This document shows positions 4,300 to 12,110 of a DNA stretch of 24,000 bases, one piece after another. Within the stretch, counting starts at the first letter, position 1. The number at the start of each line of letters is the position of its first letter. The position numbers were made by a program, and so were the translations under genes. The notes under the pieces were generated by a model. That model saw only the letters and a program-made list of their open reading frames with translations, had not been told where the DNA came from and did no database searches. Location: assembly GCF_000247605.1 (NCBI RefSeq), contig NC_016894.1, positions 1,515,732 through 1,539,731 on the forward strand, written 5' to 3'. Origin of the DNA: Acetobacterium woodii DSM 1030 (GTDB taxonomy: Bacteria; Bacillota; Clostridia; Eubacteriales; Eubacteriaceae).

Positions 4300-5445
<1,146 letters not shown>

Positions 5446-5463: not shown

Positions 5464-5820
5464 ATGGATTTTACATTAATTCTTCCTTTGATTTTAGTAC
5501 TTGTATTTTTTTATTTCTTTATTTTAAGGCCACAAAATAAACAACAAAAAGAAGTAAAAGAAATGCGATCAAGTATGAAACCGGGGGATGAAATTGTTAC
5601 AATTGGTGGATTTTATGGGATTGTTTATGCAATTGGCGAAGAAAACGTGACCATCGAATTATTGCCTGATTACCATAAAGCATTGATAACTAAATCAGCC
5701 ATTGCCCGGATTGTTACGGTTACCGAGACCGTTGCTGAAGATGACGATGATTTTGAAGAACTGGATGAAGAAACCGTTGTCGACGCAGAATTTGAAGAAG
5801 TTGAAGAAGAAAACAAATAA
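5464..5820 (+). CDS. yajC: Preprotein translocase subunit YajC with an acidic C-terminal tail
   Basis: An N-terminal transmembrane helix followed by [10 protein letters not shown]...[12 protein letters not shown], the YajC signature. It occupies the classic tgt-yajC position. Confidence 0.92.
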
Positions 5821-5847
5821 AAATTAATCTTGAAGGGAGTGAACAAT

Positions 5848-5994
5848 TTGAAACACATTAAAATCATTAAAGAAGGAAAACTCACTGACGTAAAAAACAG
5901 AGGATGTGGGGAATGTCAAACTTCCTGTCAGTCAGCGTGTAAAACTTCCTGTACCGTCGGAAATCAAAAATGCAAACAAACGACTGAAAAATAA
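5848..5994 (+). CDS. scfA: SCIFF (six-cysteine) ranthipeptide precursor, 48 aa, not in the ORF track
   Basis: TTG start with GGGAG 8 nt upstream. It translates to MKHIKIIKEGKLTDVKNRGCGECQTSCQSACKTSCTVGNQKCKQTTEK with six Cys. The core GCGECQTSCQSACKTSCTVGNQ matches the SCIFF family as I remember it. It lies immediately upstream of the cognate radical SAM maturase. Confidence 0.9.
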   Translation: MKHIKIIKEGKLTDVKNRGCGECQTSCQSACKTSCTVGNQKCKQTTEK

Positions 5995-6011
5995 TAACCA
6001 CGAGCCTGAGA

Positions 6012-6043
6012 GGGGCTGTCTCGCAAGAGATAGTCCCTTTTTT
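6012..6043 (+). terminator. Terminator/attenuator hairpin between scfA and scfB
   Basis: ggggctgtctc (6012-6022), loop gcaa, gagatagtccc (6027-6037). This is an 11-bp stem with two G-U pairs and a GNRA loop, followed by T6 (6038-6043). Confidence 0.65.
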
Positions 6044-6060
6044 CATGAAGAGGAGAAAAA

Positions 6061-7410
6061 ATGATCCATAAATATCAAAAAAACGGACTGAATATTGTTT
6101 TAGATGTCGATACCAGTACGGTATTAACGGTTGATGATCTGACCTATAACATCTTAAACCAATATGAAACAAAAACACGAGCTGAAATTATTGAATTTTA
6201 TCAGCATAAATATATGGTTGCAGAAATAAATGAATGTCTGGACGAATTAGACAAGGTAAAAAAAGAAGGGCTTTTATTCCGGGAGATCAACTATCAACGG
6301 GAAAATTATGCCAATGAAGATTTAATCAAAGCCTTATGTCTCCATGTCGCCCATGACTGTAATTTAAAATGTACCTATTGCTTTGCCGCTCAAGGCGATT
6401 TTGATGGTGAAAAACTATTGATGCCCCTCGAAGTGGGGAAAAAAGCAATTGATTTTATTATTGAACAATCCAAGAACCGGGAAAATCTGGAAATTGACTT
6501 TTTTGGCGGCGAACCGCTGATGAATCTGGATGTCGTTAAAGAACTGGTTATCTATGGCAATCAGATGGCGGTCAAAAACCATAAAAAGTTTAAATTTACA
6601 ATGACAACCAACGGTGTTTTATTAAATGCTCAAACCCGGGAATACCTCAATGAAACGATGGATAACATCGTTCTTAGCTTGGATGGACGCAAAGAAGTTA
6701 ATGATCGTATGCGTCAAACCGTTAATGACCAAGGCTCATATGATGTGATTATTGATAACATTAAAGAGATGGCCGAAATGCGGGGAAACAAAGATCATTA
6801 CGTGCGGGGAACTTATACCCATCATAATCTTGATTTTTCAAAAGACGTACAATTTTTGGCAAAACAGGGATTTACGAGTATTTCAGTGGAACCGGTAGTT
6901 GCCGAGGCCAGTCACGATTATGCGCTGACAGAAGCAGATTTACCAACCATTATCGACGAATATGACGCGCTCGCGTTAACTTATTTAAAACGGCATCAAG
7001 AAGATCTTAACTATAACTTTTTTCATTTTAATGTAGATCTTGATCATGGACCTTGTGTTTACAAACGTTTATCAGGTTGTGGGGCCGGTAAAGATTATGT
7101 GGCGGTTACCCCGGAAGGCGATATCTATCCCTGCCATCAATTTGTCGGGAATGAAGCTTTCAAAATGGGTGATGTCAATAGCGGCATTACCAATGGGGAG
7201 ATCAAGAAGATTTTTGACGCCGGCAACCTGATGGAGAAAGAAGCCTGTCAAACGTGTTGGGCTAAATATTTCTGCGGCGGCGGTTGTCATGCCAATGCTT
7301 ATAATTTTAACGGAACGATTATGAAACCCCATTTTGTCAGCTGTGAAATTGAACGTTGCCGGGTCGAAAATGCGATTATGATTTCAATTATTGAAGGCGA
7401 ACAGGCGTAA
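6061..7410 (+). CDS. scfB: Radical SAM/SPASM thioether-forming SCIFF peptide maturase
   Basis: CNLKCTYC (Cx3Cx2C, 6358-6381). C-terminal auxiliary-cluster cysteines are CGAGKD...PCHQF, CQTCWAKYFCGGGCHANAY and CEIERC. About 80 aa of N-terminal region precede the SAM core, which would fit a peptide-recognition domain. RBS GAGGAG upstream. Confidence 0.93.
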   Translation: MIHKYQKNGLNIVLDVDTSTVLTVDDLTYNILNQYETKTRAEIIEFYQHKYMVAEINECLDELDKVKKEGLLFREINYQRENYANEDLIKALCLHVAHDCNLKCTYCFAAQGDFDGEKLLMPLEVGKKAIDFIIEQSKNRENLEIDFFGGEPLMNLDVVKELVIYGNQMAVKNHKKFKFTMTTNGVLLNAQTREYLNETMDNIVLSLDGRKEVNDRMRQTVNDQGSYDVIIDNIKEMAEMRGNKDHYVRGTYTHHNLDFSKDVQFLAKQGFTSISVEPVVAEASHDYALTEADLPTIIDEYDALALTYLKRHQEDLNYNFFHFNVDLDHGPCVYKRLSGCGAGKDYVAVTPEGDIYPCHQFVGNEAFKMGDVNSGITNGEIKKIFDAGNLMEKEACQTCWAKYFCGGGCHANAYNFNGTIMKPHFVSCEIERCRVENAIMISIIEGEQA

Positions 7411-7480
7411 AATTTGGGAATAAGTGTGAGCGATCAATAATAAATGAGTAGCGGTCGCGAAAGGAATGTCTCATGGAGTT

Positions 7481-7509
7481 TTGACAAGAATAGATATTTG
7501 TGGTAGATT
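7481..7509 (+). promoter_or_regulatory. Strong sigma-A-type promoter of rho
   Basis: TTGACA (7481-7486), a 17-nt spacer, then TGgTAGATT (TG at 7501-7502, -10 at 7504-7509). Confidence 0.6.
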
Positions 7510-7526
7510 AAGATATCTACAAATAT
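7494..7526. promoter_or_regulatory. Imperfect inverted repeat overlapping the rho -10 and predicted start site (candidate operator)
   Basis: atattt-gtg-gtagat (7494-7508), spacer taagat, atctac-aaatat (7515-7526). Related ATATCTA/TAGATAT half-sites recur at 7491, 7513 and 7541. A perfect 10-nt palindrome agatatatct lies at 7537-7546. Confidence 0.3.
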
Positions 7527-7643
7527 AAAAATTCTCAGATATATCTACATTGATTACAAAAATCAATAAATACTTTAACATTAGAATTCTATTTAAATCA
7601 TCAAAACCACCCAAAACATTTAACTATCCATGGAGGCATAAAT

Positions 7644-9392
7644 TTGGAAAAGAAATCATTGGAAGACTTAACCGTTGTTGAATTACGCAAACAGGCGGAG
7701 CGTCTTGGCATCGAAAAAACCAGTCGACTTAAAAAAATTGAATTGATCGAGGCGATTGAAGAAAAACTTGAAAACGCGAAAGATCAAGGCGCACAAAAGC
7801 CGAATGACAAAAAGGAAAACGACGGATTGATAATTGAAAAAGAAACAACCGCAAAAAAACTGGACAAAAAAACGAGCAGTGAAAAAGGATCAAATGAAAA
7901 ACAGCCGCTGCCGACAAATCAACGGACCGTAAATGGGACAAACGGGAACAATACACGGTCACCGTATTATAAAATAAAAGACTCGATGGATAATGTCGTA
8001 GTGGTGGAAGGAAATCTGGAGATTTTACCGGAAGGATTTGGTTTTGTAAAAAACAAAGAGATGAAGACGAATGAAGAATTTGTTTACATCTCAGGGTCGC
8101 AAATACAAAAATTCAAACTCGAAACGGGCGATTTATTAAGCGGCAAGGTACGGCCACCAAAAACAGGCGAAAAATATTCGGCGATGTTATTTTTAGAAAA
8201 AGTTAACGGCACCAAAACGGCGGATATTATCCAAAAGATCAACAGCATGCTTTACGTTGATGAAAAAAAAGATCTGGAACGATTTAAAACCGCTCAGGAG
8301 GGAATTTTAGATGTCAATCCCGATGGCTTTGGTTTTTTAAGAACGAACCATTATCTGTCAGGGGATCATGATATTTATGTGGCCGCAAATCAGATTCGGC
8401 GCTTTAATCTTCGTACCGGCGACAAAATTGTTGGTAAAATTAAAATGTCCAGCGAAAATGAAAAATTTGATGCCTTATTGTATGTCGAAAAGGTCAATGG
8501 CGATATTCCAGAAAAAATTGCCAACCGTCCCCGCTTCGAACAACTGACGCCGATTTTTCCCGAAGAACGGATTGATCTGGAAACGACTCAGGACATAGTG
8601 TCAACCCGAATGATTGATCTGTTTTCACCAATGGGAAAAGGTCAGCGAGGTCTTATCGTAGCACCGCCTAAAGCCGGGAAGACCATTTTGCTCAAAGAAA
8701 TTGCCAACGGGATTACCACTAATCATCCGGAGATTGAATTAATCATTTTGTTGGTTGATGAACGACCGGAAGAAGTTACCGACATGAAACGCTCGATTGA
8801 TGCGGATATTGTCTATTCAACCTTTGATCAGCCCCCGGAAAATCACATTAAAGTGGCCGAAATTGTGTTGGAGCGTGGGAAACGATTGGTTGAGCAAGGT
8901 AAAGATGTCGTTATTCTGGTCGATAGTCTGACGCGTTTGACCCGTGGCAATAATCTGGTCGTGTCACCTTCAGGTCGAACTTTATCTGGAGGACTCGATC
9001 CGGAAGCCTTGTTTTTCCCCAAAAAATTCTTTGGTTCGGCACGAAACGTCGAAGAAGGCGGAAGTTTGACAATTCTGGCGACCGCCCTGGTCGATACCGG
9101 CAGCCGGATGGATGATATCATTTTTGAAGAATTCAAAGGCACCGGGAATATGGAACTACATCTGGAACGGGAATTAGCTGAACGACGAATTTTTCCGGCC
9201 ATTAATCTGAACCGCTCAGGAACTCGTCGTGAGGAAAAATTATTAACGACAGAAGAACTACGCGTCAGTTTTGATATTCGAAAACGCTACAAGGGAACAA
9301 CGGTTTATGATCTGACGGACAAGATTATTTCTATTTTGGAACGGACTAAAGACAATGAAGCTTTCATGAAAAAATTTATTGATAAAATTTAA
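7644..9392 (+). CDS. rho: Transcription termination factor Rho, long form with an N-terminal insertion
   Basis: TTG start with GGAGG 7 nt upstream. Rho_N-like helix region is at aa 8-42. There are two OB/CSD-like modules (aa 122-189 and 219-286). The ATPase core has PPKAGKT (Walker A) and VILVDSLTRL (Walker B). Confidence 0.95.
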   Translation: MEKKSLEDLTVVELRKQAERLGIEKTSRLKKIELIEAIEEKLENAKDQGAQKPNDKKENDGLIIEKETTAKKLDKKTSSEKGSNEKQPLPTNQRTVNGTNGNNTRSPYYKIKDSMDNVVVVEGNLEILPEGFGFVKNKEMKTNEEFVYISGSQIQKFKLETGDLLSGKVRPPKTGEKYSAMLFLEKVNGTKTADIIQKINSMLYVDEKKDLERFKTAQEGILDVNPDGFGFLRTNHYLSGDHDIYVAANQIRRFNLRTGDKIVGKIKMSSENEKFDALLYVEKVNGDIPEKIANRPRFEQLTPIFPEERIDLETTQDIVSTRMIDLFSPMGKGQRGLIVAPPKAGKTILLKEIANGITTNHPEIELIILLVDERPEEVTDMKRSIDADIVYSTFDQPPENHIKVAEIVLERGKRLVEQGKDVVILVDSLTRLTRGNNLVVSPSGRTLSGGLDPEALFFPKKFFGSARNVEEGGSLTILATALVDTGSRMDDIIFEEFKGTGNMELHLERELAERRIFPAINLNRSGTRREEKLLTTEELRVSFDIRKRYKGTTVYDLTDKIISILERTKDNEAFMKKFIDKI

Positions 9393-9404
9393 CATATAAA
9401 ATAT

Positions 9405-9433
9405 TTGATCTTTTAAGGAAAGTTTGATATAAT
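9405..9433 (+). promoter_or_regulatory. Putative sigma-A promoter of rpmE
   Basis: TTGATC (9405-9410), a 17-nt spacer, then TGaTATAAT (9425-9433). Confidence 0.6.
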
Positions 9434-9491
9434 GTCTCGGTTGATAAAATAACGATAAACAATTAAATAAATAAGAAACGAGGTGGATTCG

Positions 9492-9707
9492 ATGAAAGAA
9501 GGCATTCATCCAAATTACGGCAAATCAATAGTTAAATGTGCTTGCGGAAATTCATTTGAAACTGGTTCTATTAAACCAGAATTAAAAGTGGAAATCTGTT
9601 CTGCATGTCACCCATTTTTCACAGGGAAACAAAAACTTGTTGATGCTGGTGGACGTGTTGATCGATTTAATAAAAAATACGGTATTAAAAACGAGTCAGC
9701 AGAATAA
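9492..9707 (+). CDS. rpmE: 50S ribosomal protein L31, zinc-binding type A
   Basis: [10 protein letters not shown]-terminus with CAC...CSAC cysteine pairs. The ATG at 9492 has AGGTGG 5-6 nt upstream. The track's GTG at 9483 lies inside the RBS. Confidence 0.95.
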
Positions 9708-9714
9708 CAATAAG

Positions 9715-9744
9715 AAAAAGTCGGTTCTTGTAACCGGCTTTTTT
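9715..9744 (+). terminator. Intrinsic terminator after rpmE
   Basis: aaaaagtcggtt / aaccggcttttt arms with loop cttgt and T6 at 9739-9744. Confidence 0.8.
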
Positions 9745-9795
9745 CTTGTTCAAAGGCATCATGGTTGTTTTGACGAGTTGAGACGAGGTAAATAG

Positions 9796-10680
9796 ATGAC
9801 CATCAGAGAGATTTTAGATTATGGCCGGAAATTACTTTCCCAGGCCCAAATTGAATATCCCGGTTTAGAAGCCGAAATTCTTTTAAGTGGGATTTTAAAT
9901 AAGGACCGGGTTTATTTTTACACGCATCACCAAGAATTGTTGGACGCGATTAGTGAAGAGCACTATCGTCAGGCCATCAAGCGGCGGAGTCAACTTGAGC
10001 CGGTCGCTTATATTCTGGGGAAAAAAGAATTTATGGGGTTGGACTTTTTAGTCAATCGGCAGGTGCTGATTCCCCGGCCGGATACAGAACCAATGGTGGA
10101 ATATCTGATTGAATATTTACAGGCCAATTTTCCGGACGGTGCGAAAATTCTTGATTTATGTACCGGCAGCGGAGCGATTGGGATTTCAATTAAGCACTTT
10201 TATCAAAAAGGTCAAGTGGCGCTTAGTGACCTTTCGGAAGCGGCCTTAACCGTGGCCCGGGAAAATGCCAATCGTTTGGTAAATGGCGATCTTTCGCTTT
10301 ATCAAGGGGATTTATTGGCGGCGCTTCCGCAAGGTGAAACTTTTACGGTGATTGTTTCAAATCCGCCTTATATCAGGCAGTCCGAGATGAAACAGTTAGC
10401 ACCGGATATCATCGCTTATGAACCCCATCTGGCGCTTGATGGCGGCGAATCCGGTTTGGATTTTTATCGCCGCATTATTCGTGAGGCACCATTGTTTTTA
10501 AAAAAAAACGGTTTGCTGGCATTAGAAGTAGGGGATGAGCAAGCCGATGCGGTTGCCGCTCTTTTAGACCGGCAAGGTTATCATGAAATTAAAAAAATAA
10601 TGGATTTGGGCGGACATGTGCGGTGTTTAACCGGAAAATTTACAAAGACAAAGCCAATGGATAATAATAAATTGGGATGA
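9796..10680 (+). CDS. prmC: Release factor glutamine N5-methyltransferase PrmC (HemK)
   Basis: SAM-binding LDLCTGSGAIG, catalytic NPPY (VSNPPYI), RBS GAGGT upstream. Confidence 0.93.
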   Translation: MTIREILDYGRKLLSQAQIEYPGLEAEILLSGILNKDRVYFYTHHQELLDAISEEHYRQAIKRRSQLEPVAYILGKKEFMGLDFLVNRQVLIPRPDTEPMVEYLIEYLQANFPDGAKILDLCTGSGAIGISIKHFYQKGQVALSDLSEAALTVARENANRLVNGDLSLYQGDLLAALPQGETFTVIVSNPPYIRQSEMKQLAPDIIAYEPHLALDGGESGLDFYRRIIREAPLFLKKNGLLALEVGDEQADAVAALLDRQGYHEIKKIMDLGGHVRCLTGKFTKTKPMDNNKLG

Positions 10681-11316: not shown

Positions 11317-11748
11317 ATGAAATACATTAATGAAAAAGTGGCCTATACCAAAGGTTTAGTGGATGGTTTAGAATTAGACCAGGCATCTAATGAAGGTAAG
11401 GTTCTGGTTCAGGTGTTGGATATTCTTGAAGATATCGTTGATGCTTTGGATGGGATTACCGAAGCGCAGGAAGAACTGGAAGAATTTGTGGAAATGGTCG
11501 ATGATGATTTATCAGAACTGGAAGAATTTATTTTAGATGAAGATTTCGCTGATGATGAAGAATTTGAGTTTGATGATGAAGATTATTATGAAATCATTTG
11601 TCCCGAATGCGGAAATGTTTATATTACCGAATTTGATTCGTTTGAAAATAATTCAGTCGTTTGCCCGGAATGTGGAGCACCATTTATCCTAAATGAAGAA
11701 ATTTCGTGTTGTGGCGAAGATGGCTGTGATTGTCATCAGGAAATTTAA
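11317..11748 (+). CDS. Conserved hypothetical protein with a helical N-terminal domain, a poly-acidic linker and a C-terminal zinc ribbon
   Basis: Two CPECG knuckles (C95/C98, C116/C119) plus a terminal CCGEDGCDCH cluster. Residues about 50-90 are almost entirely D/E/F. It starts 2 nt after the efp stop. Confidence 0.75.
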   Translation: MKYINEKVAYTKGLVDGLELDQASNEGKVLVQVLDILEDIVDALDGITEAQEELEEFVEMVDDDLSELEEFILDEDFADDEEFEFDDEDYYEIICPECGNVYITEFDSFENNSVVCPECGAPFILNEEISCCGEDGCDCHQEI

Positions 11749-11765
11749 AGAACTCAGGTAATAAG

Positions 11766-12110
11766 ATGAAAACAGAAATGAAAAACAATCAGTCACCGGA
11801 TATCAATGACGAAATGATCGCTTCAATTGTCAGCTTAGCAGCGACAGGTGTTAACGGTGTGGAGCGTATTTCATTGAGAATCACCGATGAAATTATGGAT
11901 AAGCTGTTGCTGGCGTCTTCAATCAAAGGAGTCAAGATTGTTAGAAACCCGGAAGGTTTAATTATCTGGGTTTATATCATCACGGAACCGGGAGTTGACA
12001 TTATCAAGGTTTCGGAAGCGGTTCAGAAAAAGGTCAAAGTTGCGGTCGAGTCAATGACCGGTTTTCAGGTGTCAATGGTTAATGTCCGAATCGAAGGTTC
12101 AGGCATCTAA
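11766..12110 (+). CDS. Asp23/Gls24-family (alkaline shock) protein
   Basis: IASIVSLAATGVNGV is the typical Asp23/DUF322 N-terminal motif. Its position before nusB resembles B. subtilis yqhY. The start is chosen at the ATG at 11766; the track's TTG at 11730 lies inside the previous gene. Confidence 0.8.
   Translation: MKTEMKNNQSPDINDEMIASIVSLAATGVNGVERISLRITDEIMDKLLLASSIKGVKIVRNPEGLIIWVYIITEPGVDIIKVSEAVQKKVKVAVESMTGFQVSMVNVRIEGSGI

Follow-up and report, generated by a model that had tools for sequence, protein, structure and literature searches.

What is a 48-codon open reading frame (ORF) with six cysteine codons doing among the housekeeping genes of the acetogen Acetobacterium woodii DSM 1030? 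The ORF, scfA, and the gene that follows it, scfB, which codes for a radical S-adenosylmethionine (SAM) enzyme, together occupy positions 5848-7410 of the 24,000-nt stretch analyzed here (contig NC_016894.1, positions 1,515,732 to 1,539,731 of the forward strand; hereafter the window). Reading of the letters by themselves, referred to below as the original prediction, had proposed that the two constitute a SCIFF precursor/maturase pair. Our analysis leaves very little doubt that they are a canonical SCIFF ranthipeptide cassette, with scfA encoding the precursor and scfB its maturase.

The cassette is already known, since exact-sequence look-up found ScfA identical to the RefSeq entry "six-cysteine ranthipeptide SCIFF [Acetobacterium]" and ScfB 100% identical to A. 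woodii AFA48089.1/WP_014355692.1, and both genes are named in RefSeq for A. woodii itself. The precursor had been flagged as missing from the list of ORFs in the window; it is indeed absent there, but this stems from the length threshold of the list and does not reflect a gap in knowledge. As a discovery, the cassette matters little, given that "ranthipeptide" clusters of this sort are called by the thousand in antiSMASH-type pipelines.

The precursor peptide and its radical SAM maturase

The scfA frame (5848-5994) translates as (M/L)KHIKIIKEGKLTDVKNRGCGECQTSCQSACKTSCTVGNQKCKQTTEK*, the full peptide being MKHIKIIKEGKLTDVKNRGCGECQTSCQSACKTSCTVGNQKCKQTTEK, and the 48-codon ORF with its TTG start and ribosome-binding site has the coordinates and sequence first described for it. 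Six cysteines at positions 20, 23, 27, 31, 35 and 42, all within the span C20-C42 as had been read, mark the invariant Cys-rich core (residues 19-42, GCGECQTSCQSACKTSCTVGNQKC), with residues 1-19 serving as the leader. The original prediction had proposed a hidden Markov model (HMM) search against TIGR03973 and TIGR03974 as its own check. In the NCBIfam profile search, ScfA scored 74.5 bits with TIGR03973 (cutoff 50) and ScfB 624.8 bits with TIGR03974 (cutoff 425), while ScfA also scored 81 bits with the Pfam SCIFF model PF13165 (cutoff 27); with both proteins above the curated equivalog cutoffs, the proposed pairing is borne out. The peptide fits the SCIFF pattern of six cysteines in about 45 residues with a core of the form GCGECQTSCQSACKTSCTV(G/A)NQxC, and no other small ORF in the window packs 6 Cys into 30 residues. 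It lies directly upstream of the TIGR03974 maturase gene, on the same strand and separated by a 66-nt spacer, in a member of the Clostridia. Nothing was found that speaks against the SCIFF identification of scfA and scfB.

The pair was compared with 80 genomic loci encoding ScfB relatives, which are the 80 best matches and are dominated by Lachnospiraceae. In 79 of these 80 loci scfA lies directly upstream of scfB and shares its strand, the exception being a locus cut by a contig end. The core of A. woodii ScfA equals the consensus of the 79 loci, and 18 positions of the 23-codon core CGECQTSCQSACKTSCTVGNQxC are invariant across them. Purifying selection on the translated scfA product is very strong, as judged from 1036 synonymous against 87 nonsynonymous codon differences between the core of the window and those of the 79 loci; by per-codon counts, 64 of the 87 nonsynonymous differences are confined to the two variable positions, 19 and 22.

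We also weighed whether the 48-codon ORF might be open by chance and the radical SAM enzyme an orphan ("not_ScfB") acting on another substrate. The ORF is short, begins with TTG and falls below default ORF-length thresholds, all of which would suit such an explanation. It is nonetheless ruled out, with next to no chance of being correct, by the HMM scores above curated cutoffs, by the synonymous excess and by the synteny, i.e., the presence of a peptide gene upstream of scfB in nearly every locus. In addition, the ribosome-binding site of scfA is good, and ScfB scored 522 with the exception model NF040492 (not_ScfB), far under its cutoff of 855.

A 54-aa version starting at an upstream TTG (5830), present in a mechanical ORF list, was rejected. 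TTG 5848 is the better start, because 5830 lacks a ribosome-binding site and matches to the SCIFF models begin at residue 2 of the 48-aa form; moreover, homologues have 19 or 20 residues before the first Cys, specifically 19 in the window and four other Eubacteriaceae loci and 20 elsewhere. The Eubacteriaceae peptides read ...KN[KR]GCGEC, compared to ...KKGGCGEC in the others. The residue after the sixth Cys is Glu in 73 of the 79 loci, Lys in the window and Lys or Gln among Eubacteriaceae. An antisense ORF at 5882-6178 (98 aa), extending over scfA, the spacer and the start of scfB, was set aside as a shadow ORF of the conserved gene; antisense ORFs within scfB recur in 63 loci and were likewise taken as shadow ORFs.

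The 449-aa enzyme encoded 66 nt downstream carries the Cx3Cx2C motif and the SPASM-type C-terminus that had been ascribed to it. Its SPASM region (TIGR04085, 71.4 bits; PF13186, 25.9 bits) has the arrangement C340-X12-G353-X4-C358 ... C396-X2-C399-X5-C405-X3-C409 ... C428, plus C332, and thus contains the seven cysteines taken as the mark of two auxiliary [4Fe-4S] clusters. In a 12-sequence family alignment, C100, C104, C107 and the eight SPASM cysteines are invariant and common to the structurally characterized homologue CteB (5WGG, 5WHY), with all 12 family-invariant cysteines kept in both ScfB and CteB. Membership of ScfB in the orphan not_ScfB, PapB, QhpD or CcpM families was rejected, each score lying below its own cutoff. 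The 90%-identity cluster that holds A. woodii ScfB also contains four 47-aa members, two of which are named as FtsW/RodA-type proteins (one from Dermatophilaceae); these look like a clustering artefact of the protein collection. The features of the cassette and its nearest neighbors are collected in Table 1.

Table 1. Features of the scfA-scfB cassette and adjacent genes in the A. woodii window
Feature	Position	Strand	Basis
scfA, 48-aa SCIFF precursor, TTG start	5848..5994	+	TIGR03973, PF13165, RefSeq identity, purifying selection
scfA ribosome-binding site AAGGGAG, 8 nt before TTG	5833..5839	+	Direct reading
Terminator-like hairpin and T6, scfA-scfB spacer	6008..6043	+	Folding, shuffles, 77-locus comparison
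scfB ribosome-binding site GAGGAG, 6 nt after T-run	6050..6055	+	Direct reading
scfB, 449-aa radical SAM/SPASM SCIFF maturase	6061..7410	+	TIGR03974, NF040492 below cutoff, CteB match, WP_014355692.1 identity
ScfB N-terminal domain (about residues 1-88), aligned with leader-binding (RiPP recognition element-type) domain of CteB	6061..6324	+	5WGG alignment
Radical SAM cluster motif C100-X3-C104-X2-C107	6358..6381	+	PF04055, PF13353
SPASM region, Cys C332, C340, C358, C396, C399, C405, C409, C428	7054..7344	+	TIGR04085, PF13186
tgt (tRNA-guanine transglycosylase)	4324..5445	+	TIGR00430, 567 bits
yajC (Sec translocon accessory subunit, acidic C-terminal tail)	5464..5820	+	TIGR00739, 88 bits (cutoff 44.2)
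rho	7644..9392	+	NF006886, 668 bits

Predicted thioether chemistry

The closest characterized system is CteA/CteB (thermocellin) of Clostridium (Acetivibrio) thermocellum, whose enzyme is built like ScfB, with a leader-binding domain at the N-terminus (putative in ScfB) followed by a radical SAM core and by a SPASM domain that carries two auxiliary clusters. ScfB and CteB (5WGG) align over their full length with 53% identity over 444 aligned positions (E = 4.6e-160); the alignment begins at residue 1, and residues 1-88 of ScfB align with the N-terminal domain of CteB. PF05402 (PqqD), recorded for some close homologues, was not significant for ScfB in the Pfam scan. The core of CteA, including CKTSCT, is identical to that of A. 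woodii ScfA. The A. woodii peptide differs in having a leader one residue shorter (19 versus 20 residues before the first Cys) and Lys after the sixth Cys where Glu is usual, and the genomic flanks of the two systems also differ.

A second member of the same SCIFF family, Tte1186a/Tte1186, comes from the thermophile Caldanaerobacter subterraneus subsp. tengcongensis, and its product likewise carries a single Cys-Thr thioether (PMC10177961, PMC8326336). In vitro, Tte1186 and CteB each install one thioether, joining the fourth Cys (Cys32) to Thr37, whereas co-expression of CteA and CteB in Escherichia coli yielded a Cys32-Thr34 cross-link that was proven to be an S-C-gamma linkage and founded the ranthipeptide class (PMC8326336, PMC8172795, PMC10114670). 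An extended X-ray absorption fine structure (EXAFS) study with selenocysteine, carried out with Tte1186, showed that the donor residue, prior to being cross-linked, binds one iron of auxiliary cluster 1 (PMC10177961). The CKTSCT context noted originally is present in ScfA as C31-K-T33-S-C-T36, the segment of the published CteA cross-link (PMC8326336), the A. woodii counterparts of the cross-linked residues being C31, T33 and T36. Earlier assignment of SCIFF products to the sactipeptide (C-alpha) class was not adopted here, the literature now using ranthipeptide (PMC8326336, PMC10114670, PMC8172795).

From the 53% identity and the retention of all cluster ligands, we infer for ScfB the thioether chemistry that is known for CteB and Tte1186. 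Specifically, the N-terminal domain of ScfB would bind the ScfA leader, and the enzyme would cleave SAM at the CX3CX2C [4Fe-4S] cluster and then abstract hydrogen from a Thr side chain; auxiliary cluster 1 would hold the fourth Cys, whose sulfur would become linked to the resulting Thr carbon in a thioether from Cys-S to Thr-C-gamma. In A. woodii ScfA, the predicted cross-link would connect C31 with T33 or T36.

Other radical SAM/SPASM enzymes that form thioethers on non-alpha carbons, PapB (acting on PapA, freyrasin) and QhpD, are related to ScfB, which scored 288 bits with the PapB model NF047865 and 259 bits with the QhpD model TIGR03906, both below cutoff, and so is a member of neither family. 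Their chemistry is unlike that of SCIFF enzymes, PapB forming Cys-Asp C-beta links in repeated CX3D motifs and QhpD introducing cross-links within a protein subunit.

A terminator-like hairpin between precursor and maturase genes

The spacer between scfA and scfB contains a feature that the original prediction did not mention, a strong hairpin followed by a run of six T residues at 6008-6043. It begins 13 nt past the scfA stop codon and has an 11-bp core stem, GGGGCTGTCTC (6012-6022) pairing with GAGATAGTCCC (6027-6037), closed by a GCAA tetraloop and followed directly by T6 (6038-6043). Its centroid energy of -24 kcal/mol (z = -4.3) was matched by none of 200 shuffled sequences. We surveyed 77 loci with scfA-scfB spacers of 40-400 nt, using dinucleotide-preserving shuffles as a control. 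A hairpin with a T-rich tail at -10 kcal/mol or lower was present in 59 of the 77 spacers, compared to a mean of 2.5 and a maximum of 5 in the shuffles; at -15 kcal/mol or lower, the count was 42 of 77 against 0.25 in the shuffles. The hairpin sequences themselves are unrelated across lineages, as seen from GGGGCTGTCTC... in Acetobacterium and AAGCAGCG...CGCTGCTT in many Lachnospiraceae. Conservation of position with unrelated sequences argues for selection on structure.

Judging from this structure and its conservation, the hairpin is probably an attenuator or 3' stabilizer that sets the precursor-to-enzyme ratio, with abundant precursor mRNA and limited maturase mRNA. Stem-loops placed after the precursor gene in sboA-albA (subtilosin) and nisA-nisB (nisin) lead to an abundant short precursor transcript with limited read-through. 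For the SCIFF hairpin, a corresponding function is predicted from folding and from its recurrence in the spacers surveyed. To our knowledge, no attenuator-type hairpin has been described before for a SCIFF precursor gene, and neither a SCIFF attenuator nor a linkage to secDF was mentioned in the searchable open-access papers.

Upstream, the yajC stop and the scfA start are separated by only 27 nt (AAAATTAATCTTGAAGGGAGTGAACAAT), which leaves no space for a terminator or a complete promoter. The earlier claim that no terminator follows yajC holds, as this gap contains no hairpin and the terminator scan found none there. The preceding genes are also closely spaced, with gaps of 18 nt (tgt-yajC), 3 nt (ruvA-ruvB) and 90 nt (queA-tgt) and an overlap of ruvB and queA. 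The consensus scan listed no plus-strand terminator-like site between 2605 and 6383, a range in which it also missed the hairpin at 6008-6043, and the promoter scan listed no plus-strand promoter-like site between 5603 and 6925. Co-transcription of scfA with yajC and the upstream housekeeping genes is therefore a plausible prediction from gene spacing. In the other loci, the gap between scfA and the gene before it is typically 70-130 nt (median, 94.5), wide enough that it could hold a promoter, so the tight packing of yajC and scfA is a trait of Eubacteriaceae.

As inferred from the 27-nt gap, scfA would most likely be transcribed as the last tightly packed gene of a co-directional ruvA-ruvB-queA-tgt-yajC block, and most transcripts would probably end at, or be stabilized by, the hairpin and T6 after its stop codon. 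Since the T-run ends 6 nt before the scfB ribosome-binding site, leaving too little space for a promoter of its own, and no promoter-like site was listed, scfB presumably depends on read-through; its expression from the read-through fraction would give an excess of precursor over enzyme, a step that draws on hairpin structure and conservation. The conserved terminator-like hairpin predicted between scfA and scfB complicates their simple co-expression. A terminator after scfB was also sought and rejected, the region 7400-7650 having a fold z score of -0.75 and no match in the terminator scan.

Genomic setting and possible role of the mature peptide

When the ORFs lying up to 6 kb from scfB in all 80 loci were clustered and the cluster representatives annotated, a general SCIFF setting emerged, ruvAB-queA-tgt-yajC-(DUF3792)-scfA-scfB-secDF-recJ-relA, from which lineages have lost one side or the other. 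A secDF gene, or secD plus secF, starts within 500 nt past scfB in 49 of the 69 loci with enough flank, usually with recJ and relA next. The gene immediately before scfA encodes a small membrane protein (DUF3792/TIGR04086) in 41 of 54 loci (e.g., 6302-6676 in locus L051 and 8326-8718 in locus L036) and is yajC in 9 of 54; Acetobacterium and its Eubacteriaceae relatives are without DUF3792, and in them yajC abuts scfA. Eubacteriaceae, Peptoniphilus, Romboutsia, Anaeromonas and several other Clostridia have the whole ruvA-ruvB-queA-tgt-yajC block upstream of the pair. Most Lachnospiraceae have kept secDF and not tgt-yajC, while Acetobacterium has kept tgt-yajC and has rho downstream, as do two Acetobacterium-like loci; other Eubacteriaceae have hpf, a gene of unassigned function and secA downstream of scfB. 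Among the 79 loci carrying scfA, it is never on the opposite strand from or downstream of scfB. The two genes are split only in a Romboutsia metagenome-assembled genome (MAG; 6246-10368), where murJ (TIGR01695, 377 bits) and a gene with an HD domain occupy the 2.6 kb that separate them.

The context of the pair had been called unusual for a peptide that is ribosomally synthesized and then modified post-translationally (RiPP). This is correct for RiPPs in general and incorrect for SCIFF, in which housekeeping flanks are the rule across the 80 loci, and the idea that the setting is a special property of the A. woodii locus was dropped. As first stated, no transporter, leader protease or immunity gene is adjacent to the pair, none being found by NCBIfam annotation of the window neighborhood; because the housekeeping setting is the family norm, this lack is a family trait as well.

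Two further observations concern the downstream flank. A gamma-carbonic-anhydrase-like gene (NF050158, 198 bits, below the cutoff of 250) directly follows scfB in seven loci, whose named hosts include a Thermohalobacteraceae MAG, Anaeromonas, Alkaliphilus and Romboutsia. Six of these loci have separate secD and secF genes on the far side of it from scfB, the Romboutsia MAG being without a secDF match. In Lachnospiraceae, a fused secDF directly follows scfB.

Co-directional genes in the window run in the order radA, 6S RNA, ruvA, ruvB, queA, tgt, yajC, scfA, scfB, rho, rpmE, prmC and efp, with nusB, xseA, ispA, tlyA and nadK further downstream and not contiguous with efp. NCBIfam matches establish the neighbors of the pair as tgt-yajC and rho, in keeping with its earlier placement. 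The rho gene, 233 nt past scfB, occupies the place of secDF in most SCIFF loci, and neither secDF nor DUF3792 was found anywhere in the window. The rho leader (7411-7643) contains a promoter-like site at 7481-7509 (TTGACA-17-TAGATT with an upstream TG), as well as motifs resembling AGATAT(A)TCTACA (about 7511-7522 and 7538-7550) and a related inverted copy at 7492-7507, possibly an operator or a leader structure; the leader as a whole folds no better than shuffles. Rho is long (582 aa, TTG start), with Rho_N followed by a polar K/N/T/E-rich linker and two tandem cold-shock-like RNA-binding domains (about residues 118-188 and 218-286) that are 40% identical (E = 9e-22).

The Rfam scan found nothing in or near the cassette and, in the window, only 6S RNA (ssrS, RF00013; 1281-1460, plus strand, between radA and ruvA; 68.4 bits against a gathering score of 46.4), at whose end is a terminator-like hairpin (1457-1472) with a T7 run. 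The listed RuvA ORF (1464-2147) is over-extended at its 5' end, with the RuvA model matching from residue 28. A small plus-strand ORF with four cysteines between rho and prmC (9471-9707) resembles zinc-ribbon L31 (rpmE) by eye. The product of the gene after efp (11317-11748, plus strand) matches NF045650 (82.5 bits), "CD1247 N-terminal domain-containing protein", and the ORF that comes next, 11730-12110, had no NCBIfam match.

The biological role of the mature peptide had been described as unknown, a statement that is partly outdated by work on scfAB disruption. According to reviews of Chen et al. 2020 (Biotechnol J), C. beijerinckii and C. ljungdahlii with disrupted SCIFF genes showed lower expression of sporulation genes and higher expression of the agr locus, which was taken as participation in quorum sensing (PMC8102284, PMC8326336, PMC7778980). 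As presented in these reviews, that study supplies the sole in vivo evidence on the function of the SCIFF family, and its hosts belong to another order, Clostridiales sensu stricto. By analogy, these reviewed results point to a part for the mature peptide in cell-density-type regulation. The near-universal distribution of SCIFF in Clostridia has been argued to speak against an antimicrobial role (PMC8326336), and the earlier suggestion of a physiological rather than an antibiotic role agrees with this current opinion. We accordingly picture the mature product as one that would most likely act as a physiological or regulatory peptide and not as an antibiotic, this being the least certain step of the proposed mechanism.

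That SCIFF might instead be a secreted antimicrobial peptide (bacteriocin), like many sactipeptides, is suggested by the superfamily of radical SAM thioether RiPPs to which it belongs, which includes subtilosin, thuricin and ruminococcin C (PMC8326336). However, the window neighborhood holds none of the export, protease and immunity genes that such a peptide would call for, and SCIFF clusters, never more than one in a species, have been found to be conserved in the different clostridial orders (pangenome preprint, bioRxiv 10.1101/2025.02.12.637840). A single-copy core that stays invariant across orders of Clostridia runs contrary to the diversification seen in bacteriocins, and with reviewers reasoning likewise (PMC8326336), we regard this explanation as very improbable.

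A different proposal is that the embedding among yajC, DUF3792 and secDF is functional. The Sec holo-translocon or the membrane would then be what the peptide acts upon or what handles it, and its genes would for that reason share the regulation of the translocon accessory genes. The frequencies of secDF just downstream of scfB and of DUF3792 or yajC directly upstream of scfA would fit this proposal, as would the presence of secA two genes downstream in other Eubacteriaceae, and no open-access paper was found that names SCIFF and SecD together. A literature search on YrzE/DUF3792/TIGR04086 returned nothing relevant, and one on A. woodii accession numbers returned nothing. The ruvAB-queA-tgt-yajC...secDF-recJ-relA string is, however, presumably also conserved in Firmicutes that have no SCIFF (Bacillus, for example), in which case an old insertion site, passed on vertically, would be explanation enough. 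Either flank can also be lost with scfAB intact, tgt-yajC in Lachnospiraceae and both secDF and DUF3792 in Acetobacterium, which gained rho, and the conserved hairpin would tend to uncouple scfA from downstream genes. Given the presumed SCIFF-less strings and the dispensability of either flank, inheritance of an old insertion site is simpler than a Sec link, which we consider unlikely.

In its broadest form, this proposal starts from the SCIFF pair as an ancient, vertically inherited insert, with a conserved hairpin after the precursor gene that would be an attenuator, in the yajC-(DUF3792)-secDF translocon-accessory string of Clostridia. It would make the mature peptide a housekeeping factor with ties to the physiology of the membrane or to the Sec translocon, and neither a signal nor an antibiotic. 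We hold such a function of the peptide to be unlikely; A. woodii, which is genetically tractable and retains only the yajC side, would be a clean test system for it.

Several points weigh against the overall picture of a canonical SCIFF cassette, transcribed with its upstream neighbors, whose cross-linked product has a regulatory role. The A. woodii scfA and scfB are known here from their genes, and their expression is predicted. The promoter of scfA was not located; a weak consensus match lies at 5575-5603 within yajC, and a promoter there may drive scfA. The consensus scan did not list 6008-6043, so that the terminator call rests on folding and comparison; the hairpin was probably missed because its stem runs into the T-tract, and a scan that misses the strongest terminator-like hairpin of the region calls for care with its negatives elsewhere. 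The acceptor residue is disputed, being Thr37 in vitro and Thr34 in E. coli, and one cross-link has been found of up to six possible (PMC8326336). The quorum-sensing role, as reviewed, comes from one study in other genera. Finally, the synteny percentages describe a sample of the 80 best matches, mostly Lachnospiraceae, and are no census.

SCIFF peptides, encoded once per genome, are among the most conserved RiPPs known, and their physiological role is thinly documented, which gives the A. woodii cassette a modest value as a pointer. Two additions come from the present analysis, namely the conserved hairpin between precursor and maturase genes and the quantified position of SCIFF in clostridial genomes. 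Altogether, the fixed position between yajC/DUF3792 and secDF and the conserved hairpin narrow how the role of the peptide could be tested in A. woodii as a tractable acetogen.

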